Assembly (NCBI GenBank): GCA_903889905.1
Contig: CAISZI010000028.1
Location: forward strand, 4,156-68,155
Length of the DNA: 64,000 bases
DNA from: Candidatus Wirthbacteria bacterium
Lineage (GTDB): Bacteria; Patescibacteriota; CG2-30-54-11
Reading direction: 5' to 3'
Of the stretch, positions 65 through 63,058 are shown piece by piece. The notes under the pieces are model-generated. The model did not search any database and was not told the origin of the DNA. It saw only the letters and a list, made by a program, of their open reading frames with translations. The first letter of the stretch is position 1. Every line of letters starts with the position of its first letter. Both the position numbers and the translations under genes were made by a program.

Positions 65-3000
65 ATGACATTAAGTGAAATTGCAGGACAGCTAAGCGGC
101 GCGATTGACAATCAGATCCTGACCCCTGGCTTTGCCGATTGGACCCCTCAGCACTTGATTGTCGATGCACCTGTATTGAACAATGTCACGCTTTACAATA
201 ACCTCTACATGAATTTCCGGGACAAGCAACAGGACAGTATTGGTATTGTGAACAATACCACCGGCAAGACGATGACGGTGCAGCTCCCGCTCCAAAATGG
301 CACCGACATCGCACCCGTTATTACCAACCTGACAATCAACCAGATCCAGAGTGCCGCTCGCACCGTCATCTATGCACTGGATGCCACGGCCCACAATGGC
401 GCTTATGGTTACTGGAAAATTGTCTACGACAACGCCACGACCAGTTTTGGCAGCATCCAGTTCATTGCCCTGCCACTGACCTCCACCAACCGCAATTTGA
501 CTGACCTGGTGATCGATGCCATTCATAATCGCCTCTATGTCAGTGACGCCGCCAACAATCAGGTGCTGGTACTGGATGCCATCAAAGACAGTGTAATCAC
601 GACATTAAATCTGGTGGAAAACAGCAACAATCCTGCTCCGACTGCACTTGCTTTTGATGCTGCCAACAACCGTGTCTTTACACTCAATGCTGCTACGCAC
701 CAAGTTGGCCAGATACGTAATGGCTATATTTCTACCGATAGCCAGGGTTTCTATATCTTCCAGAATGTTCTGGGTGGTGCCAACTATCAGGTACAGGAAA
801 CCAATCTGCCCAATTACGTTTCGACTACCTCAGACAGGATCAATGTCGCCCTGTTCCAGCAGAATTTGAGCACCGATAACGACTTTGGCGACCGCATCAG
901 CGGCAGCATCAGCGGCCGCGTAACTCTATCGGGAGGTTCTGGAACAGGAATTAACGGGACAACACTCGCGCTGGCAAATTACACCAATTTTAATCTCAAC
1001 ACGACTTCTGTTGCTGCCGGTCAAACTGTACCGAGTCAACAATCACGTGGCGTGAACAGAACCGTCAACATCCCCATCACCTCTGACGCTGGCTTCCCCT
1101 CCAGTGGTGACGTGATTGTCTTTGCCATAGATCCGATCACCCATGTGCGCAGCAACTTTGAAATGTTCCACTATGCCTCGATTGACCGCACTGCACAGCC
1201 CTACAAACTGGTTGCCGACAATCCTTCATACGCCGATATCGGCGCCATCAACGATCCGATTGATCCTACCACTGGCCATGCTGCTGGCGAAACAGTCAGT
1301 TTGCTCAAATTCACCCAAGTCCAGACCAACGCCCACGGTGACTTCCAGTTTAATGACTTGTCCGAAGGTGATTACGCCCTGATTGAAACCATACCAAATG
1401 GCTATGCCGCTGCGACGGACAGTTTCTATATGCGACTGCAGCTCAGCAGTTTAAACAGCAACATCAACAACGCCAATTTTGGCCTGACTGTCCTGCCCAG
1501 CTCCGTTTCCGGCTCAGTCTACTATGACCAGAATGGTAATGGTGTGCGTGAATCCACAGAATCGGTCTTCCCAGCTTTTGGCCAGATGACAACCATTGCC
1601 ATCAACTTATTCCAATCCACACAACTTGCAACCGATACCCCTTTCCGCCAGACCACCATCAACATTGATCCTTCGACCAATAGTGGCAATTTGAGCTACT
1701 CCTTCAATGATGTGCCGGTTGGGAATTATCATGTAACCCTAAGTGGCATGCCCACGAGCTGGACGACAAGCACCAATAATCCTCGTTCTACATTCAGTCT
1801 GGGAAATGCACTTTCCCAACAGGGTGAAGACTTCGGCATCTGGCTGCCCACCAGTATCTCCGGTGTGGTTTACAACGACAGCAATACGAACGGTCAGCTC
1901 GATAATGGCGAAACCGGAATTGCCTCCGTGCCACTCACACTGGCTGATCTGAATCTCTCTACGCTGTCGACATCGATCACAAATATCGAAGGCGTCAGCA
2001 CAAATACAGCCGCTCTAACGGTTAAATTTAATCAAAATGGGTATGACACGATCAGCAATTTCCCGCAAGCCGGACTCGCTCTGATCTACGGTGCTGCTGC
2101 TGCCCCCAAGACAGGCGAATTAGTCGCCTACACAACCCAGAATGGCACTCTGCATCTCACCCAACGTGGCATTGGTGCTGCTTCACCACAACTGGGCGTT
2201 GATCCAGCCACGGCAACGGTTGTCGATGGCAAAGGAACTGGCTTTATTACGTACAAAATTGCCAGCTGCCTGACCGAAACCTGTAACACACCCAATATTA
2301 GTCTGCCTTCGGCGTCGCTTTATGTGACCAAAATTGCTGATAGCACTCCAATCAAACTGATCTGGACCAACGTCCCGGGCGCCAAAGCCTATCGTATTTA
2401 CAAATCCATTGATGGTACGCATCAGGGCATACTGGCTACAGTGGTCGAAAACACCGACACCTTCACCAATCGTGTCTTTAGCGACAACAACACGGTACCC
2501 ACTGGTGGCAATAGTGCCTTTATTTCCGGCGTGGAAGCGTCTGCGGCCAAACCCATCGCCATTGGCGACAACATCATGCCAGTCGGCTCACGCACAACGA
2601 TCACCGACGTGAGTGGCCATTATGCCTTTGCCAATCTAGCTCAGGGCATCTATCGCGTCATCGAACAGCTCCCTTTTGGCTACTATGCCACCAACGATGC
2701 GGATCAATATGACATTGTCCAAAATACCCAAACCGACACCGGCAATAATCTGAATACCTACTTTGCTGATACTTCCAACCATTCAACCGACTACACCAAC
2801 ATCAACTTTGCCAATACACCTTATCTCTCCAGCCTCAACGGCATTGTTTTCAATGACCTCAATGCCAATGGTTTCTATAACAGCGGGATTGACGGGTTCT
2901 TGAACGGCGTACAAGTTGACCTCTTCAAAGGCACCCTCACCCAGGATCAAATCAATAACCAGACACCGTTTACCACGACGACAACCAACAGCAACAATCC

Positions 3001-6000
3001 TGGCACCTACACTTTTGCCAATCTGCCGACTGGCGCCTACACGATCTTTGAAGACCATGCCCATTCCGCAGTCCTGACCAGCTCGAACTATCTCTCAACC
3101 ACTGCCAATATCCTGTATGTTTATGTTGAACCCAATGCCAACCAGGATGGCCTTAACTTCGGCGATTACCTCCCCGCCAGCGGTACGATCAGCGGCATGG
3201 TTTACAATGACAATGGCACTGGAACTGGCGCTACAGCCGGAAATGGCGTGCGCGAGGGCAGTGAACCTGGTCTAGCCGGCGCTACCATTGAACTGCACAA
3301 CAATACCCAGAACGGCCCACTTTCCACCCTGCCGATGTTCTTTGATAATTTCCGTGATACCACCAACACCATCACCGCCAATCCGAACTACTACAAGGCA
3401 GTTGAAGACCAAGCCAATAACCGCATTTTTGTCTCTGACACCGCCAATAACCGGATCCTGATCATGGAGCGCGGAGCCGACTACGTCAGCCCGATCTTTA
3501 GTCAATTTGACCTGTCGCACCCACAGGTAAATCCAGCCGTTGCCGCTTGTCTCGCACCCAAAGGCATTGCTTTTGATGGCGCCCATACCCTGTACGTGGC
3601 TTGCTCCGGGTCAAACACAATTCAGACGATCAGTACACTGAATGGCGACCGTACGAGCTGGGCGCCCAATGATGAGCAATATCTGGTACCCACCGACCTT
3701 GCCTTGAGCAGTGACAATAGTCAATTGGCAATTATCTACGACGGAGCGACAGGGGCGATCCAATTCATCAACCCTGCCACACATACGATCCTCACTTCTC
3801 AAGTCAGTTTTTCCTTTAATGGCAGTAACAAGGCTACCCATATTGTGCGTGCGTCTGATACGGGTTGGGATCGTTACCTTGTCAGCTTTGATGCAATGGG
3901 CATCGATTCCGTGGCAATTTCCTATGATCAATCTGCAAACCCACCGTATTCCATTCACCACCAGACCGCTGCCACGCTGGGACTGACTACTGCTATGCCG
4001 GTCTCCAAGTTGGTGGTTGATAGCAGCGTCACGCCTCGCGTCATTTACGGCGTGACCGGTTCCGGCTATGTCAAAATCGTGCCGACTTATGCAAATGGCA
4101 ACTATACCAACGATGCCTACACCCTGACCAGCCATTCCTTCTCACCGATTAGCCAGGTTGTCGACCTCAGCCTGGACACGAATGCCAAACGCCTCTTCCT
4201 GCTGGACAGTAACCATGCAGTACATGTCGTGGACAGCACCAATGACACCTACGCTTTACTGGTGGGCGGGACCAATAGTGGCACACCACAACTGATCATT
4301 GCCTCGCCATTTATTACGGGTTCGAACTCGATCCTGCCTGATCCGGCCTATCATCAAGTCTTTGCCTTCATCAGCAGCAATCCCGCCAGCGTGGATATCT
4401 TTGCCGACAGCATCACCCACAGTGCTGCGGATGGCACATTTAATTTCCGCAATATCCCAACCCCGGCTAATTATTCGATCACTGAAATCAATCCCAATGG
4501 CTTTGCTTCCTCATCACCTGACACGATCGAAGTATCTTTGACCCTGGGTGGTAATTCCCTCAACAACAAGTTTGGTGACTGGCAACCACTGGGTGCCGCG
4601 CCCTTAAGTATTACCAAACATTACGACACCAACTACGACGCAATTCCCAATGGTACCGCAAGTGGCGCAACTGACTGGACAGCCAACAATAAGCCCGTTC
4701 GTGCTGGCGGCATCATCAGCTATGTGCTGCAAGCAACCAATAATTCCAGCCAGAGTACTTACAATTACTTCTTCCAGGAAACCATCCCCGCCAATGCAAC
4801 CGTGAATGCCAACAACGTCTTCTTGCTGCAGCCGATCAGCGGTGGTGCACCTTTGACTGCGCCTCTTAGCGGTCAACTCGGCCAACCGTTGACCTCGCCC
4901 ATCACCATTGGCAACACCAGCTATCAGATCTATGAACCCACCAGCAGTTCGATTACCATCACCGACTCCAACCGTGACGGGATTGTGGGTGACGCCGGTG
5001 ACAAGATTACCTGGAGTGTGCTCTCGGAAGGTATTCCTGCCAATGGTTCAGTCTATGCCGGCTTCCAGGCATTTGTATTGCCGGCACTTGCCGCCAATGT
5101 GACCTCGATCACCAATGCAAAAGACAATTACTTGGTGGATGTATCCAATCCCGACCTGCCCAAACAATCCGGCAGCATTGATGTCGTCACGCCAGTCGAT
5201 GAACTCGCATCCTTTGACGGAACCGGCAATGGTAAAGGGATTGAACTTGCTTACAGCAGTGACAATAAAACCTACACAGACAATGGCAGCGACATAACTC
5301 CAGGCCAGATCGCCGAATACCGCGTCGCGTTTAAGAATAATGGTAAAAAAGGTGCGACCAATGTTGCCATTACTGACAATCTACCCAGCCAGACACTCGC
5401 CTTTGTTGACCAAAATTTTCAGCTCACCATGTACCATGCCGCCAGCGGTACAGTTTCAACCAGCACTACGTCAACCAATGACGGCATTGCCACTATCAAT
5501 CAGGCCAACGGCGCCATTACCGCCAATGTCCACAATGTTCTGGTCGGCGACTACGGCTTCCTGACCTTCCAGGCCCGCGTCAATCGGTCCCTCGACAATG
5601 GAACGGCTGTTAACAACACCGCAACGCTCGTGGCAACAACACAAATTGATGCCACCCATACCAAAAACACGACCTGGACTTTCTCCACAACCAATACCGT
5701 TAAAAGCAATCCCAATTTGGAAGTAACCATTACCAATAATCCAACCAATCTCGTGGTGGCTGGCAACAATATTACCTACACAGTCAAAGTGGCCAATACC
5801 GGCACCATGACGTCTTACAATACCCAGGTCTTTGACGGTATCCCACTGGGGACGACTTATGTTGCTGGCTCAACGCAAATTTCTGATACCTGCAGCAGCG
5901 GCTATACCACGATTGCCGATGGCAATGGCGGTGCACCGCTTGCCCGCGCCGGTGACTGGCTCTTGCCCATCAACGGACAGCTCGATGCCGGCACCAGCAC

Positions 6001-9000
6001 TTGCTATCGCTTTACCGTTTCGACCAAAGCAACGTTACAACCGGGTTATTCGGTCAAAAATGACGCACTTGCGATTGGCTACAATCAATCTGGCAGTGCC
6101 AACTGGATTGATGCCAACAAAATCACGGCAAATGCTTCTATCCTCAATACCATTGGCCGTCCTGAATTTGACCAAAAATCTGCCAAAGCCGTGGCGTTTG
6201 CCCCCAATGGCGACATCCTTGGTGACGGCGCCTACAATCCTGGCGATACCGTGCGCTATACCATTCACCTCGAGAATACGGGTAATATGCCAGCGACGAA
6301 CGTGAGACTGATCGATCCACTACCGTCAGCACTAACCTTTGTGCCTCACAGTGTCACGCTCGACAAAATCGGCAAAGACGAAAGCCAGGCTGCAATCTGG
6401 GACAATACCAGCAAGACGCTGACGATTGCGATTGACGCCATGGCCCCGGATGGCAAGACGGATATCACCTTTGACGCAGTGATTAATTCCCCGCTCGATA
6501 ACGGCACAACCATTACCAACATTGCCTATGTCAGTGACACGGAACATTACAATATCAATCTAACCAATGACGCAAATGCCACGCCGCTTCCAGCACAAAT
6601 CAATAATATTGCCAATCCAGCCTTCACCAGTGCCATGAGCACCTCCTTCAAAGTCGCTTCCCGTCCGATCTTCACAGCCACCAAGACTGCCAGTCCTGAG
6701 CCCACATCGATTGTTCTCCAGGGCGACACATTGACTTATACGGTGACCATCACCAACACCGGCAACATGACCGCACATAATACTGTGGTCGCGGATGTGC
6801 TCGATGGCGCGCTGGTCAGCCCCAATTATTCCAGTTCGCCCTTTGCGACGCAGTTTGATACCATCACCCGTACCGAAATGTGGAATATCGGCGACCTGCT
6901 CCCGGGCGATGCCAACAAAGTCACCCTGATCTATAGTGCCCGCGTTTCCAGCCAGGCGCCAGACCTGACCCGTATCCACAATTTTGCGACCATGTATGCG
7001 GTGGGAGCTATCCCGACCAATACCAATACCGTCACCCACATCGTCCACCCGGCGCTGATTGTCAGCAATGCCAAACTTGTCCGCCTCGTCTGCGATACCT
7101 CCGGCGTCTGCAAACCCAACAATGACGGCGTCCTCAATCCCGGCGATATTGTCCAATACACCATCCGCATGGCCAACCGTGGTCTTGGCGTCGCCAGCAA
7201 TATTCACGTGGTTGACACGCTGCCTACCAACATGAGCTTTGTCGATGCCAATCCTGTCGCCCGCGTCACCGGCAATACGATTGACTGGGAGATTCCGAGC
7301 CTGAACGGTTTCAGCACCATGGACATCATCGTCAATGCCAAAGTGAACGCCGGTACCGAATGCAACACCACCGTCTCCAATGGCGCCCAGATCACCTACG
7401 TGGGTGCGGACAATACGGACAACACCACAACCGTCAACATCATTTCGCCACCCGTCAGCGTCTGCAGCCCGGTTGTCTCCTATGACCTGACCCAAAGCAG
7501 CATTACGGCAACCATGAAAACCGACGCCAATCACGACAGCAAACTAAACAGTGGCGACACCATCACCTTTAACGTCAATTTAAACAACACAGGCAATGGC
7601 GACGCTACCGGCATTAATGTAGCTGACGCTGTCCCGCTCTACACCACCATCGTCCCCAATTCGATCACCCAAAATGGCGCCTATGATGCCACCACCAACA
7701 AAATCAGCTGGACCAATGTGACGGTCCAAAGCGGTGGAGCCAACAAGGTTCTTTCCTTTGACGCCATGGTCAACCCTTCTGGTGTCTCGACCGACGCCAA
7801 CAATCCGACCGTCATCAAAGACAATGCAACCGTCCAGGGCAGCGTTGGCGACCAGAACATCCTGATCGGCCCCACGCTCTACAGTGAACGCCCACTGACC
7901 TATCCCGACTTCACGATATCGACCAAAAATGTCTCGATCAGCAGTGACCTCAACAAAGATGGCCAGGTAAACAATGGCGACACGCTGCTCTACACGATCG
8001 TTCTCAAAAACACAGGGAACGCCACCACCAACGTCGTGGTCTATGACACCCTCCCGCCGGGTCTGGATTGGGTCGCAGGCAGCCTCACGACCAATGACAA
8101 CATCAGCATTGACGCCAGCAATGGCAATGCTATCTTCTGGACGGTCAAAAACATGGCCGGTGGCAGTTCTTCTAACCCTGCGTTGCTCACCTTGACCGGT
8201 AACGCCCTGGTCAAAAATGTTGCCCCGGACAAACTGCTGCTCTGCAACAGCGCCCACATTACCGGTATTGACGAAGGCTCAATCGCCACCATCAATGACA
8301 AATGCATTTGTATCAATAACGTATCGAATATAACCGCCACCAAGACCGTGGCCAACATCACCCGCACCGACGGCCAGTACCGCATCGGCGACGTCGTCAG
8401 CTACACCATCACCGTCACCAACCATGGCGCCAATACGGCCAATAATATCAACATCGACGACACGGTGGACGGCAACCTGATTTACCAGAGTGGCTCGATC
8501 AAAGGCGGTGATAGTCGCAACGACAGCCAGGCACCCAATCTGCACTGGACCATCAATCAACTTGCCATTGGTGCCACCGCGACACTCACCTTTGACGCCT
8601 CCATCCGTTCCGGACTACCGGGCGGCACCGTCATCTCCAACAGCGCCAATGTCTCTTCCACCGACCAGAACAATCTCAAAGCGGCTGCACCAGATATTAC
8701 ACTCGCCGCCATGCCTTACTTTGGCGCCTCCAAAAAGTCCGCTGACCAAACTGCGGTCAAACCTGGTAATGTCATTACCTACACCATCAATGTCCAAAAC
8801 AGTGGCAATCTCGCTGCAACCGGTGTGAACTTCACGGATGCGATCCCGGCCAATGCCTCACTGGTAGCCGGCAGTGTCACCCTGGATGGTCAAGCCCAGG
8901 CCAATCCTACTGGTGCGATTGCCATCGGCCTCGGCAATATGGACATCAACGCCAGCCACACCATCACTTTCCAGGTACTCAGCGGCGCCAACGAAACCGG

Positions 9001-9220
9001 CTACAACCAAAAAATCATCAATACCGCGACCATCACTTCCACCGAAGCCGGTGCCAACAAGACCAATACTGTCACCATCACACTGAAGACGCCCAAATCC
9101 ACGGCGACGACGGGTAACGCCAACCTGATTCCGATTTTCCTCCTGGTCTTTAGCGTTATGGCAACGGTTTACATCGGTGGGAAGAGAATGCTCCGCAAGC
9201 TGCGGCAATCCAAATTGTGA
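65..9220 (+). CDS. Giant repeat-rich cell-surface protein of at least 3051 aa. It contains NHL/beta-propeller-like repeats, SdrD-B/Cna-B-like Ca-binding repeats, an FN3-like segment and at least 9 DUF11-type repeats, and ends in a TM helix plus basic tail. It is probably 5'-partial.
   Basis: The ORF is 9.2 kb. NHL-like motifs include NRLYVSDAANNQVLVLDA, ANNRIFVSDTANNRILIM and KRLFLLDSNHAVHVVDS. SdrD-B-like motifs include SGSVYYDQNGNGVRE, ISGVVYNDSNTNGQLDNGETG, DVSGHYAFANLAQGIYRVIEQLPFGY and NGIVFNDLNANGFYNSGIDG. DUF11-like motifs include NPGDTVRYTIHLENTGNMPATNVRLIDPLP, GDTLTYTVTITNTGNMTAHN, ITYTVKVANTGTMTSYN, PGDIVQYTIRMANRG, GDTLLYTIVLKNTGNATTN, IGDVVSYTITVTNHGANTANN and PGNVITYTINVQNSGNLAATG. 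The C-terminus is LIPIFLLVFSVMATVYIGGKRMLRKLRQSKL. There is no signal peptide after Met65, and the reading frame is open from nt 2 with no stop, so the true start is probably upstream of the window. Confidence 0.85.
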   Translation: MTLSEIAGQLSGAIDNQILTPGFADWTPQHLIVDAPVLNNVTLYNNLYMNFRDKQQDSIGIVNNTTGKTMTVQLPLQNGTDIAPVITNLTINQIQSAARTVIYALDATAHNGAYGYWKIVYDNATTSFGSIQFIALPLTSTNRNLTDLVIDAIHNRLYVSDAANNQVLVLDAIKDSVITTLNLVENSNNPAPTALAFDAANNRVFTLNAATHQVGQIRNGYISTDSQGFYIFQNVLGGANYQVQETNLPNYVSTTSDRINVALFQQNLSTDNDFGDRISGSISGRVTLSGGSGTGINGTTLALANYTNFNLNTTSVAAGQTVPSQQSRGVNRTVNIPITSDAGFPSSGDVIVFAIDPITHVRSNFEMFHYASIDRTAQPYKLVADNPSYADIGAINDPIDPTTGHAAGETVSLLKFTQVQTNAHGDFQFNDLSEGDYALIETIPNGYAAATDSFYMRLQLSSLNSNINNANFGLTVLPSSVSGSVYYDQNGNGVRESTESVFPAFGQMTTIAINLFQSTQLATDTPFRQTTINIDPSTNSGNLSYSFNDVPVGNYHVTLSGMPTSWTTSTNNPRSTFSLGNALSQQGEDFGIWLPTSISGVVYNDSNTNGQLDNGETGIASVPLTLADLNLSTLSTSITNIEGVSTNTAALTVKFNQNGYDTISNFPQAGLALIYGAAAAPKTGELVAYTTQNGTLHLTQRGIGAASPQLGVDPATATVVDGKGTGFITYKIASCLTETCNTPNISLPSASLYVTKIADSTPIKLIWTNVPGAKAYRIYKSIDGTHQGILATVVENTDTFTNRVFSDNNTVPTGGNSAFISGVEASAAKPIAIGDNIMPVGSRTTITDVSGHYAFANLAQGIYRVIEQLPFGYYATNDADQYDIVQNTQTDTGNNLNTYFADTSNHSTDYTNINFANTPYLSSLNGIVFNDLNANGFYNSGIDGFLNGVQVDLFKGTLTQDQINNQTPFTTTTTNSNNPGTYTFANLPTGAYTIFEDHAHSAVLTSSNYLSTTANILYVYVEPNANQDGLNFGDYLPASGTISGMVYNDNGTGTGATAGNGVREGSEPGLAGATIELHNNTQNGPLSTLPMFFDNFRDTTNTITANPNYYKAVEDQANNRIFVSDTANNRILIMERGADYVSPIFSQFDLSHPQVNPAVAACLAPKGIAFDGAHTLYVACSGSNTIQTISTLNGDRTSWAPNDEQYLVPTDLALSSDNSQLAIIYDGATGAIQFINPATHTILTSQVSFSFNGSNKATHIVRASDTGWDRYLVSFDAMGIDSVAISYDQSANPPYSIHHQTAATLGLTTAMPVSKLVVDSSVTPRVIYGVTGSGYVKIVPTYANGNYTNDAYTLTSHSFSPISQVVDLSLDTNAKRLFLLDSNHAVHVVDSTNDTYALLVGGTNSGTPQLIIASPFITGSNSILPDPAYHQVFAFISSNPASVDIFADSITHSAADGTFNFRNIPTPANYSITEINPNGFASSSPDTIEVSLTLGGNSLNNKFGDWQPLGAAPLSITKHYDTNYDAIPNGTASGATDWTANNKPVRAGGIISYVLQATNNSSQSTYNYFFQETIPANATVNANNVFLLQPISGGAPLTAPLSGQLGQPLTSPITIGNTSYQIYEPTSSSITITDSNRDGIVGDAGDKITWSVLSEGIPANGSVYAGFQAFVLPALAANVTSITNAKDNYLVDVSNPDLPKQSGSIDVVTPVDELASFDGTGNGKGIELAYSSDNKTYTDNGSDITPGQIAEYRVAFKNNGKKGATNVAITDNLPSQTLAFVDQNFQLTMYHAASGTVSTSTTSTNDGIATINQANGAITANVHNVLVGDYGFLTFQARVNRSLDNGTAVNNTATLVATTQIDATHTKNTTWTFSTTNTVKSNPNLEVTITNNPTNLVVAGNNITYTVKVANTGTMTSYNTQVFDGIPLGTTYVAGSTQISDTCSSGYTTIADGNGGAPLARAGDWLLPINGQLDAGTSTCYRFTVSTKATLQPGYSVKNDALAIGYNQSGSANWIDANKITANASILNTIGRPEFDQKSAKAVAFAPNGDILGDGAYNPGDTVRYTIHLENTGNMPATNVRLIDPLPSALTFVPHSVTLDKIGKDESQAAIWDNTSKTLTIAIDAMAPDGKTDITFDAVINSPLDNGTTITNIAYVSDTEHYNINLTNDANATPLPAQINNIANPAFTSAMSTSFKVASRPIFTATKTASPEPTSIVLQGDTLTYTVTITNTGNMTAHNTVVADVLDGALVSPNYSSSPFATQFDTITRTEMWNIGDLLPGDANKVTLIYSARVSSQAPDLTRIHNFATMYAVGAIPTNTNTVTHIVHPALIVSNAKLVRLVCDTSGVCKPNNDGVLNPGDIVQYTIRMANRGLGVASNIHVVDTLPTNMSFVDANPVARVTGNTIDWEIPSLNGFSTMDIIVNAKVNAGTECNTTVSNGAQITYVGADNTDNTTTVNIISPPVSVCSPVVSYDLTQSSITATMKTDANHDSKLNSGDTITFNVNLNNTGNGDATGINVADAVPLYTTIVPNSITQNGAYDATTNKISWTNVTVQSGGANKVLSFDAMVNPSGVSTDANNPTVIKDNATVQGSVGDQNILIGPTLYSERPLTYPDFTISTKNVSISSDLNKDGQVNNGDTLLYTIVLKNTGNATTNVVVYDTLPPGLDWVAGSLTTNDNISIDASNGNAIFWTVKNMAGGSSSNPALLTLTGNALVKNVAPDKLLLCNSAHITGIDEGSIATINDKCICINNVSNITATKTVANITRTDGQYRIGDVVSYTITVTNHGANTANNINIDDTVDGNLIYQSGSIKGGDSRNDSQAPNLHWTINQLAIGATATLTFDASIRSGLPGGTVISNSANVSSTDQNNLKAAAPDITLAAMPYFGASKKSADQTAVKPGNVITYTINVQNSGNLAATGVNFTDAIPANASLVAGSVTLDGQAQANPTGAIAIGLGNMDINASHTITFQVLSGANETGYNQKIINTATITSTEAGANKTNTVTITLKTPKSTATTGNANLIPIFLLVFSVMATVYIGGKRMLRKLRQSKL

Positions 9221-9233
9221 GGTGTTGGGTCAG

Positions 9234-9267
9234 GCCGGTCCGGCGGTTGAGGTCCGCCGGACTGGCC
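9234..9267 (+). terminator. GC-rich stem-loop just downstream of the giant gene's stop codon; intrinsic terminator or attenuator candidate
   Basis: The sequence is GGCCGGTCCGGCGG-ttgaggt-CCGCCGGACTGGCC, a 13-14 bp stem with a 7-nt loop, followed by aagcccttt (a weak U-tract). It lies between the giant gene's stop (9220) and the pilin-like start (9299). Confidence 0.45.
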
Positions 9268-9298
9268 AAGCCCTTTAGATAAATCCAAAGAAGCTGCC

Positions 9299-9649
9299 AT
9301 GAAACTCAAATCCACAATTTATCTCGCGCTTTTCCTCCTGCTGCCCCAGGTGGTTTTTGCTGATGACTGGCAGGTCAATACGGTCTTCGGCATGGTCAAC
9401 ACCCAAAACACAGCGCTTAGTGATTATCTCAATCTCATCCTCGATTTTCTCTACGGCATCATGGGATTGGTCGCGGTCATTCGAATTTTCTACGGTGCTT
9501 TCCAATATATTCAATCCAACGGCAATCCTGACCAGGCCCAAAAAGGCAAACGCATTATTCAGCATGCGGTTTATGGTTTACTCCTGGTCCTGTGCGCCGC
9601 TGTGATCACGGTTACTTTTGTCACTATCAAACTACCCACCATCAAATGA
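9299..9649 (+). CDS. VirB2/TrbC-like pilin-type small membrane protein (116 aa) with a signal peptide and two TM helices
   Basis: The protein reads MKLKSTIYLALFLLLPQVVFA|DD, then an ectodomain segment, then a hydrophobic helix LILDFLYGIMGLVAVIRIFYGAF, a charged loop QYIQSNGNPDQAQKGKRIIQH, and a second helix AVYGLLLVLCAAVITVTFVTI. This topology is typical of T4SS/conjugative pilin precursors. Its TGA stop overlaps the ATG of the downstream gene (ATGA at 9646-9649). Confidence 0.5.
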   Translation: MKLKSTIYLALFLLLPQVVFADDWQVNTVFGMVNTQNTALSDYLNLILDFLYGIMGLVAVIRIFYGAFQYIQSNGNPDQAQKGKRIIQHAVYGLLLVLCAAVITVTFVTIKLPTIK

Positions 9650-12600
9650 TCCAATTACACCAACCCAAAACCTGGCTGATCGTCCTGCTCCTCACACTCA
9701 CTTGTGTCGGGTTGGTCGGACAGGCACCAACGGCCGCAGCGGAACAGCTGAGTAGTATTCCCTATTGGTCCGACGCCACCAAGGAATCCGCTCTGCTCAC
9801 ACAAGCAAATAATCAGATTTATGGCAATCCACAGACCGATGCCAGTACCTACATCAAGGGTGCAACAGCCCTTGACAATGACGCCTCACAACTGGCCTCA
9901 ACCATTGAAAATGACGTTATCAGCGTCATCAAAGACACCAAACTGAAGCAACCAGCACAAGTGGCAGCCATCAAAGATATTGTCTACAAAATCTATCGTC
10001 CGGCCAATGCCTTTGTGAATGCATCCCCCAGCAACGGCGCCGACACCAAGGCTTATGTCGCTCAATTTGGCATTGTCAATTTTTTACGCATGTATTTGGG
10101 CCAGTGCACTGGCAGCCTGGGCAGTGACCCTTACTGTTCCAACCAAAGCTGGTATAGTGCTCCCAATGGCGACAATGCCTACAACTATACTGGGCCCAAT
10201 CAAAACGAAGTCCGCACTGCCACAGCCTATTATTTGCAGCAGGCAGCCGTCAAACAACCCTTTTACGATCGATTGAGCATCAACAACGATGGGACGCTCA
10301 CCGAAACGACTGGGATTGTCACCGAAATCAACCAGTTCCTCAAAAATTTGGATGACGCAACCTTGCAATCCAAAATGCTGACCCTGAAGACTTCTATGCT
10401 CGACCCGACTGACCCGACTAAAACTATTAACGTCCCCGAATATTCATTGGCTTCCAGCCAGCTTTACATGATTGTCTCCAAAAACCAAAGCCTGATCACC
10501 AACAAAGACTACACATTTTTCTGGACTTCTGATTATTTCCCCGGTGCGCCGGCTGCCAGCCTGACCACGCTGACTGACCTGACTGCTGATTTTCAATTGG
10601 TGGCCTACGTCCGCGCCAAGACCATTTATGAAAAAAATCGTTCCCAAAAACAGGCCCAATATAGCCTTGCTACCCAACTCACCAAGGAAGTCAGTGATGT
10701 TTACGGCACGCTCACGGCGTCACCCTATGATATGTCTACTGTCGTAAGCACTTTGAGCACCAAATTTGCAACAGTCAAAACATTAGGAAGTACCTGTAGT
10801 GCAGCGGAACAGGGGTACATTGGATGTACAAATAGCAACATTGAACCCATGAACATGGCGGACAATGCCAGTCAAGAAACTGTTATCCAAAACGCAATCG
10901 AAGCTGCCACGCAGGCGGTAGAGAATTACACCAAAACCTACCAAGGCAGCCCCAATCTGGGAGATCCCAATACGATTGCTGATATGGGCAAAGCTCGAGC
11001 CAGTATCTTGGCAGCACGTGATTCCATTTTGCGTTATTTGTCTGAAATGACCGACACCGCCAACCAACGCATCAATGAAGCTACGCTCAACATCGACCAG
11101 CTCGCCAATATCATTGGCAACCAGCTCTCGTCGCTCACCTCTGTCAATTCGCTCTGGACAGAGCTGCGCAAAGCCCTGATGAACCTGATCACCTGGTTAT
11201 TCAGCATTTTTGGCAAAATACTTAACTTTGGTATGACCTCGATCAACAACGAAGCGAGTTTGAATGCCATCTTCACGCTCACCGTCGGACTGGCCAACAT
11301 GATGTTTGTGCTCCTGGTGGCGCTTGCGGGACTCGCGATTGCGCTGGAGTGGAATGTGCAGACATACAGCATCCGCAACATTATCTGGCGCTTTATTGTG
11401 AGCGTCATCGCGGCTAATGCCAGTTTCCTGATTTCCCGCATTTTTGTCGACTTTTCCCTGATTTTTTCCAATGTTTTCCTCAGCATGGCATCCACTCTGA
11501 CCAGCAATACGACGGAATTGTTTATTCGCATGGGCACGGTTAACGGCACCTCCACGCTCGGACTTTCCAGTGCTGCCTTAAGTCATTTATTCGGTTCGCT
11601 GCTTACTTCCAATACCGCCGCGGTGGCCAATAATGTTTTTCAGAATGACATTTCCGCCGTGCTGGTCCTGGTCGTGATTATGCTGATTGTCGCGGCGGTT
11701 GACATCATGTTGATCGTGCGTACGGCAGCGATGTGGTTACTGATCATCGGTTCGCCCTTTATCCTGGCGCTCAATGTTCTGCCCAACACCCGCAGCATTT
11801 TGTCCAAATTCGCCAAAATTTTTGCCCAGCTGCTGGTGATCGCACCGATTGTAGCCATGATCTTCCTGATTGGTATTTCTCTGGCACAGTTGAGCGATGA
11901 TTTGCTCAAAATCCTGATTGGAATCGCCACCTTTACACTGATGTTGCTCTCGCCGTCGTTCCTGTCTTTTTTCAGCAACATTGTCAAAATCAACAAACGT
12001 TCGGATGCCCGCACGGCCATTGCCACCGCCTACAACAACAACTCCGCGCCGACATCTCCGCCCGGGAGCAGCGCCAAACCGAATTCCCCCACAGGGCCTG
12101 CTGGAACCAGTATCAAAAATACGTTTAATACCAATATCAAAAATTTCATCAACCGTCCCAAAAATGAAACCATGCCCGCAGGTCTGGGTGAACTGCCTCC
12201 GCAATCCATCCTGACTGCGGTCAAAAGCGGTGTGCTGAATAAACTGCCGCCCGAGGAACTGGACAAAGCTTTTAGCAAAATGAGCAAAGCCCAACGCGAA
12301 GCGCTGCTCTCGACCTTCAATGCCAAAGACCGAAATAGCGACCCGCTGTGGACCGAAGACCAGCAGGAACTGATCGGGAAACAGGTGAGCAAAAGCGATA
12401 TCAATGGCGCAGTACGCTCGAGTGAGTTGATTTCCAAAGCCTCGGTGGCCAAAGATTTCAATATCAACAAATTTGTCAAAACCGCAACGCCCTCAACGGG
12501 AGGAACCGAGCCCCTTGCCGATGAAATCAGCAACCAACTGGCGCAGGAACAAAACGATCAGCTCCAAAACAACTTACAGCATAAACTGGAAAGCAATAAA

Positions 12601-15387
12601 CTCTCTCCCCAGCTACTGCAGACGCTGTTCAGTCACGCACGCGGTGTTCCCTTTTTGGGTGGCCTGCTCAAATCCGGTACCGGCAGACCCCTGGGTGAAG
12701 CACTGGTCGGCAGCTACTATCAGAGCAATCCCCGCGAGATCACAGCGCTGGCCGGTGACATCAATGCTTCCGACTCTGTCCGTTCCGACGCCGCCAAAAC
12801 TGTGCTCAAAGTCGGTGTCGAAGCTTTGGGACAGGCACTCATGCAAAATCCCGATGATCCACAGCTCCGCGCCGCGGCCAAAGACCTGGTGACGATCATG
12901 CCCGAACAAATTGCCTCACTCTTAAGTGGCAATGACGACAAACAGTCACTGCGGGAATCCTTTGTCAATCAAGGCTTGTATCGCCAAGCTCCCTCGACCA
13001 CTGCCCCGGTCATGAGTTTTGATACAGCTCAGCCGCTCGGCACCTTCTCGACTCAACCGCTGCCGGCCAACGGCAACGGCCAGATTGACCAGAGCACCGC
13101 GAATGACATGAGTGGCTTGTACCGTCCCATACCCCCGGCCCATGTCCCGGTCATGAATTTTGATGGGGCGCAGCCGCTCGGTCCAGCCTCGGCTCAACAA
13201 CTGCAAGCCAAAATCAGTGGCCAGATCGACCAGATCACAGCGGGTGACGTGAGTGGACTGCTGGATAAAATGAACGAAATACCTACGCTTTACCGGAATT
13301 CACTGGGCAACCTCGTTGATCAATACAATCAGCAACTGGGTCATTTCGGTAACCAGGGCACACTAAGCCAATCCGCCGCCCAAACCATTAATCAAAATCG
13401 CGACCGTATCGCCCAGCTCGGCTTTAATTTAAAACAAACCGCCAATCAGGACATGGCTGCCGCGGGTGAATTAACGCGCATGAGTGGCCCCGAACTGCAG
13501 CAAGCCAGCGCCGATCTGCTGTCGGTTGGACTCCCGGCGATGATCGCCTCCAACCCTCAAGCCGTGAACGCTACTCTGATGGACCGTACGCTCCAGGGCT
13601 TGTCCCAAAACCCCGAAGTTTTCAAACCACTTATCTACTCCATGCTGTCGCCGCAGTCCGATATCCCGCCCGCCGTGTATGCCAATGGCTTGCAGGAACT
13701 GTTGCAGACCCATCCCGAAATGGTCATGCCCGAACATGTGGGTCACGCCATCAGCAATCTCAGCACCAATCCCGAAGCCTATTCACCTGTGGTCGGCGCC
13801 ATGGCCGAAATGTTTAATCAAAACAAAGACAAGATTGGTCAGACTGGACAACTTTCCATTCCTGCTGCCGCCGAACTGGCAGTCCACGCCGACGAACTTG
13901 CCACCCACAACGCCCCCTTGATCCTGAACGCCTTGCCCAATCCGACGCCGGAACTCAGTGCTGCCATTGCCAGCAAAGCTGCCAGTCAAGGGATCATGGG
14001 ATTACCCGATGGATTGATCCATGACGGTCTGGATTTCACACTCCAGAACCAATCCCTGGAATTCACCCCCGAGCAGTTTGCCCTGGTGGAAAATCGCGCC
14101 AGAGAAAATCCGGCAGAATACATGCCGCTTTTAAATCAAGTTGTTGAACATTTCAATGACTCCAATCTGGATGGCGCTGACCTTAAGCTCAACATGCCTG
14201 CCATGATGACCGTTGCCAGCCAGGAAAATTCACTGCGCGATCTTGGCTTTGAAATCAGCAGCCAGATCAGCGGACAACTCAAAAACCTGGCCTCCTCCCA
14301 AAACCTCGACCTCGGCAGCCTCGACAACATTGAAAAAGCGATTCGTGAAATTCCCAAAAACATGTCCCTGCCCAACCCCGGCGAAAACACCACAGAGAAT
14401 GCGGCCAAAAACACCAAATACGACGAACTTCCGGGCCTGGTGCACAAAACCGCCGCCGACCAGGACGAACTGGCGCGCGACAAAGTGGATATTGCCTCCA
14501 GCCTGGGCAAAAAGAACAGCCATTCTGACAATCTGGGCACGCTCGAGGATTATGCCCTCAATGTCCAAAGTGCGCTGATTGCCGGCGAAATGAGTCCGGA
14601 TTCGGCTTCGCCTGTCGACAAAAATGCCGAAATCGACGCGGTCAGTTTGCACGACCTGGCCAAATCGCTTGACCCCGGTACCGCAAGCTCGCTAATTCCC
14701 GAAAGCACGCAGTTTGTCCTGCCAGAGACAACTACCGGTGGCACTTTTGAAAGCCCAGCCGAACTCAGCGGCCAACCCGATCTGATGGCTGCAGTATCCA
14801 ACAATGAAGCGAACAACAAATCCAATGACTGGCCCCAGAAACCTTTTGCCTCTGATGCCATCCGCCCGGATGCGCCACTTGCGGACGACAAGGCCTCGAT
14901 CCAAAGCGGCATGAACGATCTCAACAAATTCCTCAGCAGCAAACCCCAGGCTATGCCCATTCCGACGGGTAACGCGGCAGCGCCCGCTGCAGCCGCCACC
15001 GATATGATGATCGATTATCAAGCCATCAAGGATTCCACGCTACCCAATGTACCTTTTCCTGAAACGATCGTCTCTGCCATCAGCGTAACGCCGGAATTGG
15101 AAAAAATCCTCAACCATAACCGCCTTGATGCTACCATTCCACCCAACACGTCGATCAAAATTGCGGAACCGCTGCAGGTTAAATCAGAATTATCAGCTGG
15201 CTCTGTCCAAAACCCGGCCAAACCGCTCAACCCATCCATTTTGCCTAATCAGAACAAGCTCAGCGACAATCTGCAGGATTTTGCCGCCAATGTCCAAAAC
15301 GCTGTCGGCCCGTCACCGGATGAAATTTTCCTCAACCCTGTCCCGGATGCCATCGCCGCTTTATCGCTCAAAGACCAAAAGGATTAA
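9646..15387 (+). CDS. Giant membrane protein (1913 aa) with a signal peptide, a ~480-aa extracytoplasmic N-domain, a ~7-TM bundle and a ~1150-aa Q/N/P/A/L-rich low-complexity C-terminal tail. It is a VirB6/TrbL-like candidate (an extended VirB6, as seen in Rickettsiales).
   Basis: The signal peptide MIQLHQPKTWLIVLLLTLTCVGLVGQAPTAAA begins at the ATG at 9646, which overlaps the pilin stop. The ORF-track start at 9592 is a GTG inside the pilin gene and is unlikely. TM helices span aa ~520-790 and include the motifs MLIVRTAAMWLLIIGSPF and LIGIATFTLMLLSPSFLSFFSNIV. These are clearly conserved in the paralog at 48791-52507. The assignment to the VirB6 family rests on architecture plus adjacency to the pilin-like gene and has not been verified by HMM. 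Confidence 0.5.
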   Translation: MIQLHQPKTWLIVLLLTLTCVGLVGQAPTAAAEQLSSIPYWSDATKESALLTQANNQIYGNPQTDASTYIKGATALDNDASQLASTIENDVISVIKDTKLKQPAQVAAIKDIVYKIYRPANAFVNASPSNGADTKAYVAQFGIVNFLRMYLGQCTGSLGSDPYCSNQSWYSAPNGDNAYNYTGPNQNEVRTATAYYLQQAAVKQPFYDRLSINNDGTLTETTGIVTEINQFLKNLDDATLQSKMLTLKTSMLDPTDPTKTINVPEYSLASSQLYMIVSKNQSLITNKDYTFFWTSDYFPGAPAASLTTLTDLTADFQLVAYVRAKTIYEKNRSQKQAQYSLATQLTKEVSDVYGTLTASPYDMSTVVSTLSTKFATVKTLGSTCSAAEQGYIGCTNSNIEPMNMADNASQETVIQNAIEAATQAVENYTKTYQGSPNLGDPNTIADMGKARASILAARDSILRYLSEMTDTANQRINEATLNIDQLANIIGNQLSSLTSVNSLWTELRKALMNLITWLFSIFGKILNFGMTSINNEASLNAIFTLTVGLANMMFVLLVALAGLAIALEWNVQTYSIRNIIWRFIVSVIAANASFLISRIFVDFSLIFSNVFLSMASTLTSNTTELFIRMGTVNGTSTLGLSSAALSHLFGSLLTSNTAAVANNVFQNDISAVLVLVVIMLIVAAVDIMLIVRTAAMWLLIIGSPFILALNVLPNTRSILSKFAKIFAQLLVIAPIVAMIFLIGISLAQLSDDLLKILIGIATFTLMLLSPSFLSFFSNIVKINKRSDARTAIATAYNNNSAPTSPPGSSAKPNSPTGPAGTSIKNTFNTNIKNFINRPKNETMPAGLGELPPQSILTAVKSGVLNKLPPEELDKAFSKMSKAQREALLSTFNAKDRNSDPLWTEDQQELIGKQVSKSDINGAVRSSELISKASVAKDFNINKFVKTATPSTGGTEPLADEISNQLAQEQNDQLQNNLQHKLESNKLSPQLLQTLFSHARGVPFLGGLLKSGTGRPLGEALVGSYYQSNPREITALAGDINASDSVRSDAAKTVLKVGVEALGQALMQNPDDPQLRAAAKDLVTIMPEQIASLLSGNDDKQSLRESFVNQGLYRQAPSTTAPVMSFDTAQPLGTFSTQPLPANGNGQIDQSTANDMSGLYRPIPPAHVPVMNFDGAQPLGPASAQQLQAKISGQIDQITAGDVSGLLDKMNEIPTLYRNSLGNLVDQYNQQLGHFGNQGTLSQSAAQTINQNRDRIAQLGFNLKQTANQDMAAAGELTRMSGPELQQASADLLSVGLPAMIASNPQAVNATLMDRTLQGLSQNPEVFKPLIYSMLSPQSDIPPAVYANGLQELLQTHPEMVMPEHVGHAISNLSTNPEAYSPVVGAMAEMFNQNKDKIGQTGQLSIPAAAELAVHADELATHNAPLILNALPNPTPELSAAIASKAASQGIMGLPDGLIHDGLDFTLQNQSLEFTPEQFALVENRARENPAEYMPLLNQVVEHFNDSNLDGADLKLNMPAMMTVASQENSLRDLGFEISSQISGQLKNLASSQNLDLGSLDNIEKAIREIPKNMSLPNPGENTTENAAKNTKYDELPGLVHKTAADQDELARDKVDIASSLGKKNSHSDNLGTLEDYALNVQSALIAGEMSPDSASPVDKNAEIDAVSLHDLAKSLDPGTASSLIPESTQFVLPETTTGGTFESPAELSGQPDLMAAVSNNEANNKSNDWPQKPFASDAIRPDAPLADDKASIQSGMNDLNKFLSSKPQAMPIPTGNAAAPAAAATDMMIDYQAIKDSTLPNVPFPETIVSAISVTPELEKILNHNRLDATIPPNTSIKIAEPLQVKSELSAGSVQNPAKPLNPSILPNQNKLSDNLQDFAANVQNAVGPSPDEIFLNPVPDAIAALSLKDQKD
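13006..13262 (+). repeat. Intragenic tandem repeat with two ~141-bp units, encoding PVM(S/N)FD(T/G)AQPLG...GQIDQ...SGL twice
   Basis: ccggtcatgagttttgat... at 13006 is repeated as ccggtcatgaattttgat... at 13147. The encoded peptide PVMSFDTAQPLGTFSTQPLPANGNGQIDQSTANDMSGL aligns with PVMNFDGAQPLGPASAQQLQAKISGQIDQITAGDVSGL. Confidence 0.7.
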
Positions 15388-48712: not shown

Positions 48713-48741
48713 TTGTTAATTTGGGGCAGCTTTGTTATAAT
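48713..48741 (+). promoter_or_regulatory. Near-consensus sigma-70 promoter (TTGTTA, 17-nt spacer, TATAAT) upstream of the second VirB6-like gene
   Basis: ttgtta at 48713-48718, spacer atttggggcagctttgt, and tataat at 48736-48741, about 50 nt upstream of the TTG start at 48791. Confidence 0.5.
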
Positions 48742-48790: not shown

Positions 48791-51700
48791 TTGCCACAAG
48801 CCAAACCAAAACCAAAACTGATTCTCTCGCTGCTCGCTGCCCTGCTGGTTGCGGTGGCTGTGCTTGGCTTCGCGCCTGCATCAAGTCATGCCGCCAATAG
48901 CCCCACCATTGAACCCAATGAAGGCTACGCCGGCATTCCGGTTTCGATCAACGCATCCGGTTTGGGTACGATTGTTGACAAGTACGATGACACCAAAATG
49001 TACGTTGAATTCGTCGACGCAATGGGCACCAAAACCAAAGCTACTGTCACCTATCCGGTAGCCCAAAACTGGAACGATACCAACGTCAATTTTACCGTTC
49101 CCAGCGGCCTTCCCAACAACGCCTATGATGTCTTTGTCGTGAGCAACGGCAACCGGATTGGCCCGCTGAAATTTCACATCATCGCCTATGCCACGCCCGC
49201 CAACGTCAATGGCACGCCGGATTATACATCCGACTACATCATCGCCAACACCCAGAGCATTAACGTGTCTGACGCCATTCGACAGATTGCCCAGGGCTTT
49301 CTGCTACCCAGCAAAGACACCATTATAGAATTGGGCAGCTACCTGCAGGATGCGCTGGTTTTGAAACTAGACCTGGGGTCCTCCGACACGGATGGCAGTG
49401 CTTACAAAAAACTGGAGCCCATCTGGTCAATCAGCCACAACCTCGTCAATAGTCTTTTTTTGCTGGCGATTGTCTTCATTGGCATCATGATCACTCTCCG
49501 CATGCAGAACCGCATCAACCGCTACTGGCTGCGCAACATTATCCCCCGTGGCATTCTGGCACTGGTGCTGATCAATCTCAGCCTGCTCCTGAGCCAGGCG
49601 CTGATGGATTTCTTTGTCATCTTTACCCATGTCATCCGTGATTCATTCTCCACCATGCCTTCGGGCCAGCAGTTTGCGACCGCTTTACTGGGTGATTTGC
49701 GCTTAAACATTTTCGTGCTCGCCATGCTGGCTTTTTATTTGCTCACCATTGCCCTGATGTCATGCGCCCTTGTAATGATGATCCTGCGTACTATTGCCAT
49801 CTGGCTGATGGTCGCGATCGCGCCTTTTGTCTTCATGGGCGTCTTGTTTCCATTTACGAGCCACGCGCCAATTGTCTGGTTGAAACGATTTATGCAAATG
49901 CTGCTGGTGGGTCCAATCGCAACCTTTTTACTATTTATTGGTTACCAACTGAGTATCTCGGTCAAAGCGGATTTTGAAAATGCCGACCTGATCCGGGCTT
50001 TTATTGGTATCGCCACCCTGACATTGCTGTTGTTTATTCCTTCGTTCATTGGCAGCATTTTTGACTATGTCCAAAAAGTTCTCCCAACGAACAAAAATAC
50101 CACCAATAATACCAGCACAACCACCAAAACCTCGAACCAGAACAATCAGGACAACTCTACCTCCATCAAGAATAAAATCGGGCTCCAGGATGGCAGCCTG
50201 GCCGACAAAATCCAGACCATCAAAATTCCGCTCACTGACCAGTTCCAAAAACGCTTCCAGTCGCTGATCAGCGGTAAACCAAACATCAGCACCCCAGCCG
50301 ATTCCGGCACGGCGGCAGTCAATTCCGCCGCATCAGACGCCAGACAGACCGCGACCAATGCCAGCACTGCAAGCTCCAGCGAAGCGACGACGACCGAACG
50401 CAAGCAAGGGCCCAGCCGCGACGACTCCGCCGGCAAACCCCAGATTGACCTGGACCGGGCCAAAGAACAGGCACGCGCCAAGAACAACGTATTGTTTGAC
50501 CAGGCCACCCCCAACAAACTGTTTGATACTGCACCACCGCAACTGGTGATTAACTGGCTGAACGACAAAGGCAAAATCAAAATCGTCAGCGCCGGGCTCG
50601 TGGCAAGCAAAGGCAACCTTGAAAACAACAAAGCCAACGCCATCATCGACAGCCAGCCTGGCAAACAGTTACTTTCCGACATGTATGGCAACGGCAGTAA
50701 AGACGAAAAAAATGCCTCATCGAATTTGATTTCCAATATCTTCCTGGCTTCACCGGACCGGATCAAAACGATCGTTGATGCAACCGGCAACAACGCGCCC
50801 CCGATCAAACAGGCTGCACAAACGGTACTCGAAGCTGGCATCGTTCGTCTGGGCCAACGCCTCCAGGAAAACCCAGGCGATGAAAAACTGCAGAAAGCTG
50901 CCGAACGCGTTGTCATGTCTGCGCCTCATCTGCTCAGTTCCACTCTGGCCAATGTTCCCGACCAGGGTCCTGTGCTAATCAATGCCGGCATTATGGAGCT
51001 GGCGGCAACGCTGGGTGCCACCCTGGCAAAACTGACGGACAGGATTTCACCCCGAGTGATGTTTGCAAACCCGACACCAGACTCCAAGGAATATTTCGAC
51101 GTCGGACAGCTGGCATCACAGATTGTCGTTTATCCCGCATTGCAACTTTCACGACTTGGAACCAGCCATGCCGGCGCCCAGTTCGTGGCCTCTGCCGCAC
51201 TGTCCAACACGCCGCAAAGCACTGAAGTCAAACAAAAACTCGTCGGTGAACTCGAGCAATCCCCCAGTAATATTTCGCTGCAAGCGATTGCCGCCGAAAT
51301 TTTCAAACACACTCCTCCTGCTGCGGTCGCTGCACTGCCTGTCCCCATTGCCACCGCTGCCCGTGAATATTTGAAGTCACCGGCCATGCAGCAAAAACCT
51401 GATCCGGAATTGATCCAGCAATACCTGACTGCGACCAGCGGTCCCGATCTGTTGCAGCACGAATCCCTGAGTGGCAATTTGCTCAAACAACTTAACCTGC
51501 CTGATTTGCTCAAACACATCGGCATTGAAAATCATGACAAAAACACACTTGAATTGCCCAGCAAAATCGTCATGGCTTCCCCGGTTGTCGAGTTGGTAGA
51601 AAAACAAAAAGATTTATTTAATGAATCCCAAAAAACACTTCCCTATCTTGAACCCCAGAATCCCGCACTGGCAGCTGCGACAGCGGTCAAACTGGTCGCC

Positions 51701-52507: not shown

Positions 52508-52531
52508 GCATCCATCTAAACACACGTTGCT

Positions 52532-52587: not shown

Positions 52588-52606
52588 ATTGGCAATGAAA
52601 GGACAT

Positions 52607-61671: not shown

Positions 61672-61689
61672 AAGAAAACCCTCCTTTAT

Positions 61690-62978: not shown

Positions 62979-63058
62979 CTTTGCCTCTCGATCTATCATT
63001 GCGAATCCTGTTTCGGGATGTGGCAATCTAGTGTATTGGATCCTGTGACCGATAAAGA

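Follow-up and report, generated by a model that had tools for sequence, protein, structure and literature searches.

Two loci in a 64-kb stretch of DNA from Candidatus Wirthbacteria bacterium (Patescibacteriota; GenBank assembly GCA_903889905.1, contig CAISZI010000028.1, positions 4,156 to 68,155 of the forward strand; hereafter the window) probably encode envelope parts of a contact machine that resembles the type IV secretion systems (T4SSs) of monoderm Patescibacteria and is dispersed from its motor, a reading to which we assign a probability of roughly 0.6. Module 1 comprises a giant surface adhesin, a VirB2-like pilin of 116 aa and an extended VirB6-like membrane protein of 1913 aa (protein 1), and module 2 a second extended VirB6-like protein of 1238 aa (protein 2) followed by a membrane-anchored surface protein of 1490 aa (Table 1). 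These five genes, all of which are present in the list of open reading frames (ORFs), had been singled out in an earlier note made from the sequence of the window, which described them as two paralogous modules. The membrane proteins are indeed homologous, but the description is overstated for the modules, because their surface proteins share no similarity and their gene order differs. The analysis was confined to this 64-kb part of the genome, and ORFs of at least 100 aa were scanned with profiles for component families. The kind of system is already known, and the window holds an unusually extended and dispersed form of it.

The 116-aa protein belongs to the T4SS_pilin family. It matches the Pfam profile PF18895 over positions 4-70 of 71 with 43.9 bits against a curated cut-off of 26.6 (E 2.6e-11), and its hydropathy profile shows the VirB2-type topology of a signal peptide and two hydrophobic helices (segments at residues 3-21, 43-68 and 85-115), with a cleavage site near VVFA/DDW and a polar, basic loop, QSNGNPDQAQKGKR, joining the helices. 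The protein is thus recognised by a pilin profile, and the VirB2-like identity proposed for it is upheld. The search suggested for this purpose, with the canonical TrbC/VirB2 profile (PF04956), gave no match at E ≤ 0.1 for the window pilin; its orthologue in L009 (loci of relatives are numbered with L and proteins with P) has a precomputed PF04956 match graded 'faint', and a match to the mycoplasma integrative and conjugative element pilin-like family NF045849 is sub-threshold. There is only one pilin gene in the window. Its stop codon (TGA, 9647-9649) overlaps the start codon of VirB6-like gene 1 (ATG, 9646-9648) in the sequence ATGA at 9646-9649. Overlaps of this type typically accompany coupled translation, and the pilin and protein 1 are therefore probably made together. 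Pilin orthologues are found at the matching position, adjoining the VirB6-like gene, in L004, L006, L009 and L010; the spacing is a 4-bp overlap in L010 and a gap of 11-18 bp in L004 and L009, and T4SS_pilin gives 41.9 bits for those of L004 and L006. Also, the Joint Genome Institute (JGI) metagenome protein P0151 (422 aa) carries, in one ORF, a T4SS_pilin domain (39.7 bits) fused to a VirB6/TrbL-like core (TrbL E 8e-4; precomputed TrbL_3 match). The existence of such natural fusions supports direct cooperation of pilin and VirB6.

Both long membrane proteins carry a predicted VirB6-fold core. An AlphaFold2 model of the protein 2 core, built from a 19-sequence alignment, has a predicted local distance difference test score (pLDDT) of 75.6 and a predicted template modelling score (pTM) of 0.67. 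When it was compared with known structures by Foldseek, the top three matches were TrwI/VirB6 chains of the R388 T4SS (probability 0.97-0.99; TM-score 0.44-0.48; all other matches ≤0.2). The core model of protein 1 is of low confidence and still recovers TrwI (8rt9_F, probability 0.82). A homology chain leads to the same family: a profile of the two window cores, searched exhaustively against 1.84 billion representative proteins, retrieved 9466 clusters at E ≤ 1e-3, ten of which, namely protein 2 itself and nine relatives, were found at E ≤ 1e-30. Among 49 sampled relatives, 14 match Pfam TrbL at E ≤ 1e-3 (best 3.6e-6) and none matches a competing membrane family, and protein 1 has the invariant core columns N, Y, N.S, R, P, P and P in common with the TrbL-matching relatives. 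TrbL_3 (PF19590) is listed as a precomputed match for protein 2 (P0001), with a score that was not reproduced locally, and for the orthologue P0009, at E ≤ 1e-5. Hence, the VirB6-like assignment made earlier stands at the level of the predicted fold and through the homology chain, but cannot be based on the curated TrbL threshold. A bundle of the transporter or ComEC type, which had been named as grounds for overturning it, was rejected, as neither the family scans of the relatives nor the structure search gave such a signal. Other searches were uninformative: a word-index homologue search returned only protein 2 itself for the full-length sequence, nothing for the core and one protein for the family profile, and a profile search of the PDB with the full-length alignment gave only spurious low-complexity or coiled matches (Xrn2, Snf5). 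Scans of genomes and metagenomes for such loci returned only four.

Proteins 1 and 2 align with 27% identity over the core (BLASTP 4e-20) and share a second conserved block in their tails (BLASTP 8e-7). The core motifs quoted in the earlier note are real, and sequence comparison identifies the two proteins as paralogues. Protein 1 consists of a signal peptide (residues 1-32), a helical ectodomain (33 to ~500), the core (~526-786) and an acidic tail (787-1913), and protein 2 of a signal peptide, a beta-rich ectodomain of ~170 aa, the core (~205-430) and a tail of ~800 aa. The core had been thought to contain about seven transmembrane helices; the AlphaFold model of protein 2 has five long hydrophobic helices and one short one, in agreement with the hydropathy profile. 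Nor does 'huge low-complexity tail' describe the C-terminal parts, which align with those of orthologues along most of their length and carry a conserved motif. This motif of ~50 aa lies ~250 residues past the core, occurs as a single copy per protein in both paralogue types and is also found once each in P0002-P0005, P0009 and P0010; no internal repeats were found when the tails were searched for them. The ectodomain of protein 1 is modelled with a pLDDT of mostly 75-95 and has no convincing analogue among PDB structures, its top matches being chimeras of G-protein-coupled receptors (GPCRs) with BRIL, along with weak matches to flagellar junction proteins. The promoter-like site that had been pointed out 5' of VirB6-like gene 2 (TTGTTA, 17 nt, TG-TATAAT) has 10 of 12 consensus matches and is the best such site of the module 2 region.

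The relatives found at E ≤ 1e-30 fall into two orthologue groups that mirror proteins 1 and 2. The protein 1 group (P0002-P0008) contains proteins of 1617-1812 aa with a conserved 'PYWSD' ectodomain start, and the protein 2 group (P0009 and P0010) proteins of 1305-1360 aa. All align with their window counterparts over most of their length, tails included, with ~25-40% identity overall and 29-59% in the core. The module 1 trio of giant DUF11 adhesin, T4SS_pilin and extended VirB6-like protein is kept in L004, L006, L009 and L010; the 3' FtsJ/TlyA neighbour recurs in L009 and L010, and the M24 peptidase, S18, SSB and S6 neighbours in L009. For module 2, the order in L008 is VirB6-like gene, large surface protein, transaldolase (Tal) and YidC, and the 1490-aa protein is homologous to the 1710-aa protein encoded 3' of the VirB6-like gene there (1e-47, 7e-29). 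Both gene sets thus recur, with order and housekeeping neighbours kept, in relatives at roughly 30-50% identity, whereas a lack of joint conservation had been named as grounds for abandoning the modules. No integrase, relaxase or repeat boundaries were found in the window, and the base composition matches that of the surroundings. Because the gene sets recur together beside housekeeping neighbours, we conclude that the module genes stay together and are vertically inherited in a housekeeping setting. A mobile element was rejected on the basis of these neighbours and the lack of an integrase or relaxase. A distant member of the VirB6-like family (635 aa) is encoded in L007 (1748-9779) within a compact PrgI/VirB3-VirB4-pilin cluster, which specifies a PrgI/VirB3 protein of 141 aa, a VirB4-type ATPase of 611 aa (TraG P-loop, AAA_10) and a T4SS_pilin-containing protein of 298 aa.

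The giant adhesin beside the pilin gene contains DUF11 (nine stretches), SdrD_B, SpaA and NHL domains according to Pfam and ends in a membrane anchor, in line with its previous description as an anchored DUF11/SdrD-B/NHL surface protein. Its start had been placed at the ATG at 65, but frame 2 has no stop between base 2 and this codon, which is probably not the true start. Because the frame is open from base 2, the ORF runs off the window start and comprises at least 3072 aa, and no signal peptide is visible because the gene is cut by the window edge. Collinear orthologues with 41-49% identity are encoded 5' of the pilin gene in L004, L009 and L010. At the C-terminus of the adhesin (window 9100-9220), 'TGNAN' is followed by a membrane helix and a basic tail, and the C-termini of the orthologues (L004 49-591, L009 2-3628, L010 1-3066) consist of 'TGN[QAT]N', a hydrophobic helix and a basic tail; these ends resemble three-part sorting signals of the sortase or exosortase type.

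The 1490-aa protein of module 2 has the topology described earlier, with an N-terminal signal peptide and a C-terminal membrane helix in its hydropathy profile. Its central region contains FNEVN and VEAGY, kept as FNE[VP]N and [LV]EAGY in the L008 orthologue, a possible signature of clan GH-A glycosidases that consists of short motifs only. The L008 orthologue (4866-9998) also has an insert at residues ~936-1028 with lytic-transglycosylase motifs (VIENG, GLGQLMP, GAGYF), for which the Pfam matches SLT_2 (E 0.003) and SLT (E 0.009) are both sub-threshold and which is missing from the window protein. These enzyme readings of the 1490-aa protein and its L008 orthologue are leads, not findings. 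Similarity was detectable neither between the giant adhesin and the 1490-aa protein nor between the latter and a 2343-aa protein encoded in the window, and homology within either pair was rejected on these pairwise comparisons.

The two intergenic hairpins reported before are real. The one between the adhesin and pilin genes has a predicted free energy (dG) of -40.7 kcal/mol (z -4.05), and none of 200 shuffled sequences folds as well; it lacks a T-run and is not a canonical intrinsic terminator. The one between VirB6-like gene 2 and the surface-protein gene (dG -44.8 kcal/mol, z -9.46) also lacks a T-run, and a third, 3' of the surface-protein gene, has a 15-bp stem between an A-run and a T-run (dG -32.1, z -6.45).

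Based on these results, we hypothesize that the VirB6-like cores oligomerise as a membrane platform for the extraction and polymerisation of the pilin, by analogy with R388 TrwI and Agrobacterium VirB6. The N-terminal ectodomains would, by the same analogy, point outward, and the helical ectodomain of protein 1 (~470 residues) may take the place of the Gram-negative VirB5/VirB6 stalk. The long C-terminal tails would be cytoplasmic and their ~50-aa motif a candidate docking site, for instance for a VirB4-type ATPase or for substrates, with the energy supplied by a VirB4-type ATPase encoded outside the window. The giant DUF11/SdrD adhesin could keep a partner cell, or the cell's own surface layer, near the machine, and cleavage or binding of cell-wall polysaccharide is a possible role of the 1490-aa protein, whose L008 orthologue has the SLT-like, VirB1-like insert. 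The strong hairpins between the surface-protein and pilin/VirB6 genes would set differing expression levels of neighbouring genes.

Several results weigh against this dispersed-machine proposal. VirB4-family ATPases are the signature proteins of all T4SSs, and no family match to VirB4, VirD4, VirB3/PrgI, a VirB8-like protein, VirB1 or VirB11 was obtained among the scanned window ORFs, nor any match to AAA_10, CagE_TrbE_VirB or the TraG P-loop within the 64 kb. A Walker A scan of the window identified RecG and RuvB as the only convincing P-loop proteins, the rest being chance matches; profile and motif scans thus agree with the earlier note that VirB4 and VirD4 are not encoded here, and a motor of the VirB4 type is assumed to lie elsewhere in the genome. 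The proposed check against Pfam TrbL (PF04610) had a mixed outcome: protein 2 reaches 13-15 bits (E 0.07 and 0.022) against a cut-off of 25.9 and protein 1 has no match, while the matches to this profile were found among the relatives. A PDB profile search with the core alone gave TrwI at a non-significant E of 0.78. We infer the topology of the tails and the oligomeric state of the VirB6-like proteins, as well as the formation of a pilus by the T4SS_pilin-family protein. The 1490-aa protein has no Pfam domain and no sequence match in the PDB, which also weakens the glycosidase reading. Moreover, the window contains purF-, purN- and purM-like genes of the de novo purine pathway (60139-63957, minus strand), which is atypical for Patescibacteria.

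The absence of an ATPase gene of the T4SS type in the 64 kb around both loci could also mean that the function of the pilin and the super-extended VirB6-like proteins requires no VirB4/VirD4 motor. Sec/YidC would then insert the pilin, the VirB6-like platform would assemble a short filament or contact pad, and the neighbouring giant surface proteins would be functional partners. We regard such an autonomous apparatus, and equally each of these details, as unlikely. It would fit with the location of both loci in conserved housekeeping neighbourhoods and not in a T4SS cluster across relatives, with the large domains added to an ordinary VirB6 and with the gene for YidC, which lies 1.5 kb from module 2 and is also near module 2 in L008. 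We know of no VirB2-type pilus, however, that assembles without VirB4. The relative in L007 has VirB4 three genes away, and the contigs of the relatives are ≤15 kb, so that absence of a motor cannot be judged from them. Also, dispersed T4SS genes are common in VirB4-bearing Patescibacteria genomes (PMC12102498). An apparatus without VirB4 and VirD4, whether minimal or novel, was one of the two possibilities raised in the earlier note and is not supported by anything found in this analysis of 64 kb.

Equally improbable, in our view, is a role in the handling of surface proteins, in which the VirB6-like proteins are scaffolds or export and anchoring helpers for the giant surface proteins and the pilin is a small accessory membrane protein that forms no filament. 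The same low standing is given to the alternative that function resides in the long tails themselves, an idea put forward for some VirB6 paralogues of Rickettsiales. Both VirB6-like genes are conserved, each beside a gene for a very large membrane-anchored surface protein, the two paralogues are each paired with a different one, and the tails are conserved in orthologues with a shared motif, all of which would be expected from such a role. On the other hand, strong hairpins lie between the surface-protein genes and those for the VirB6-like proteins and the pilin, suggesting that they are regulated separately, and the P0151 fusion together with the ATGA coupling links VirB6 with the pilin rather than with the adhesin. 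No special exporter appears to be needed either, given the ordinary Sec signal peptide of the 1490-aa protein and the C-terminal anchors of both surface proteins (the N-terminus of the giant protein lies outside the window).

A further and still more doubtful possibility is that a small clade uncoupled a VirB2-like pilin and a VirB6 platform from the T4SS motor and enlarged the platform into proteins of 1.2-1.9 kaa. By this account, which we hold to be improbable in all its parts, the platform gained new outward and cytoplasmic domains, each protein became genetically linked with a giant adhesin or with a surface protein active on the wall, and the result is an ATPase-independent or remotely powered cell-contact organelle in which a 470-residue ectodomain replaces the VirB5 stalk. 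Decaying, non-functional remnants of an old integrated conjugative element would account for the presence of only two of the usual T4SS gene families in the window, but are disfavoured to the point of being very improbable by the intact ORFs of 1238 and 1913 aa, by orthologues that align over most of their length, by a gene order kept across several lineages and by the lack of mobile-element marks described above.

Known systems offer several parallels to the dispersed contact machine favoured here. As in Gram-positive conjugation systems, in which the adhesin PrgB and the VirB1-like hydrolases PrgK/TraG accompany the T4SS membrane parts, a surface adhesin is encoded beside T4SS membrane components; the giant adhesin has no homology to PrgB, and any correspondence in role is putative. 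The SLT-like motif of the L008 orthologue parallels the PrgK/TraG wall hydrolases, although it is sub-threshold and missing from the window protein. R388 TrwI/VirB6 (PDB 7o3v, 8rtd), with a sequence identity of 12-15%, is a protein of 342 aa with neither a signal-peptide ectodomain nor a tail, and its partner in the diderm envelope is VirB5. The Legionella Dot/Icm protein DotA (PDB 9ngy) shares 8% sequence identity and belongs to a diderm type IVB system; its partners (IcmX) have no counterpart here. Rickettsiales VirB6 paralogues form tandem arrays beside other vir genes, whereas those of the window each lie in a housekeeping neighbourhood of their own. A core of at least five hydrophobic helices is common to the window proteins and to Rickettsiales RvhB6, the Ehrlichia VirB6 paralogues and the 700-900-aa VirB6 proteins of the MPF-FA (mating-pair formation) class (PMC12857230). 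VirB6 proteins extended by large hydrophilic domains have been recognised as a subfamily (PMC12857230), and large hydrophilic extensions and several paralogues per genome are features shared with the window proteins, a likeness of layout. The window extensions differ from those of the Rickettsiales, Ehrlichia and MPF-FA proteins in including an N-terminal ectodomain with a cleaved signal.

The closest resemblance is to the T4SSs of other Patescibacteria, which are likewise monoderm-type, chromosomal and without a relaxase, contain PF18895 VirB2-like pilins and a VirB6 homologue and often have their pilin and VirB6 genes away from virB4. Pilin-bearing monoderm T4SSs have been described (PMC10633639, PMC12857230), and the saccharibacterium Southlakia epibionticum requires its system (SEML1_0006-0019), which has no recognisable relaxase or coupling proteins, to grow as an epibiont (PMC10633639). 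In a survey that covered 3,035 genomes, 1,948 assemblies had PF18895/VirB2-like pilins, only 1,135 of them near virB4; 304 of the 480 VirB6 homologues were near virB4, and no adhesins were reported (PMC12102498). In contrast to these systems, the window has a single pilin gene instead of an array of up to 11, two VirB6 paralogues (1238 and 1913 aa) to which large N-terminal ectodomains and 800-1100-aa tails are added, no VirB4, PrgI or TrsD nearby and a conserved adjacency of VirB6 genes to giant surface proteins. New features are the exceptional length and domain composition of both VirB6 paralogues, their confinement to a small clade, the dispersed housekeeping locations and the conserved pairing with giant surface proteins. 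In the only ultrasmall, host-dependent species whose T4SS has been put to the test, the system is essential, its pilins are unlike those of other monoderm systems and it has no obvious DNA-transfer parts. To this, the window adds a conserved genetic link between a pilin/VirB6 pair and giant surface proteins. The extra VirB6 domains, namely the confidently modelled helical ectodomain and the tail motif, could reveal the outward and inward connections of the platform. By itself, the locus reveals no new kind of machine.

Table 1. Features of modules 1 and 2, in window coordinates.
Feature	Position	Strand	Basis
Giant surface adhesin, at least 3072 aa	2..9220	+	Pfam domains; open frame to window edge
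GC-rich hairpin with 14-bp stem, adhesin/pilin intergenic	9233..9267	+	Folding versus shuffles
VirB2-like T4SS pilin, 116 aa	9299..9649	+	PF18895 match
Extended VirB6-like protein 1, 1913 aa	9646..15387	+	Paralogy to protein 2; full-length orthologues
VirB6/TrbL-like helical core, protein 1	11221..12003	+	Family alignment; TrwI match of model
Conserved tail motif, protein 1, ~56 aa (residues 1040-1095)	12763..12930	+	
Promoter-like site 5' of VirB6-like gene 2	48713..48741	+	Consensus match only
Extended VirB6-like protein 2, 1238 aa	48791..52507	+	TrbL_3 match, fold, orthologues
VirB6/TrbL-like helical core, protein 2 (modelled region)	49403..50080	+	
Conserved tail motif, protein 2 (residues 672-719)	50804..50947	+	
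Very strong hairpin, VirB6-like gene 2/surface-protein intergenic	52525..52597	+	Perfect stem of ~25 bp
Membrane-anchored surface protein, 1490 aa	52670..57142	+	Topology; L008 homologue
Bidirectional terminator-like hairpin	57169..57201	.	Between surface-protein gene and convergent transaldolase gene

Between the two modules, the 2343-aa ORF (34241-41272, minus strand) has no membrane segment, no Walker A motif and no Pfam or NCBIfam match, and its product is apparently a very large cytoplasmic protein. Also on the minus strand, the window encodes an SSB protein of 316 aa (18212-19162) with two SSB/OB domains per chain, as does L009 (12010-12921; 303 aa, likewise two SSB/OB domains in one chain). 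This two-domain layout is best known from Deinococcus-Thermus. A UvrC-like ORF of 769 aa (31065-33374, minus strand) includes a GNAT acetyltransferase domain at residues ~496-597, and its UvrC RNase H endonuclease domain is matched in two stretches. Three tandem paralogous genes for PDZ and S41 (CtpA-like) peptidases of 423, 430 and 434 aa are located at 41384-45559 (minus strand). Finally, an Rfam DUF3800-IX RNA motif (23234-23304, plus strand; 61.3 bits against a gathering score of 36.8) is flanked by a Type_ISP_C specificity-domain gene (21715-23097) and an N6_Mtase/Eco57I methylase gene (23321-25165), an arrangement that looks like a split Type ISP restriction-modification system.

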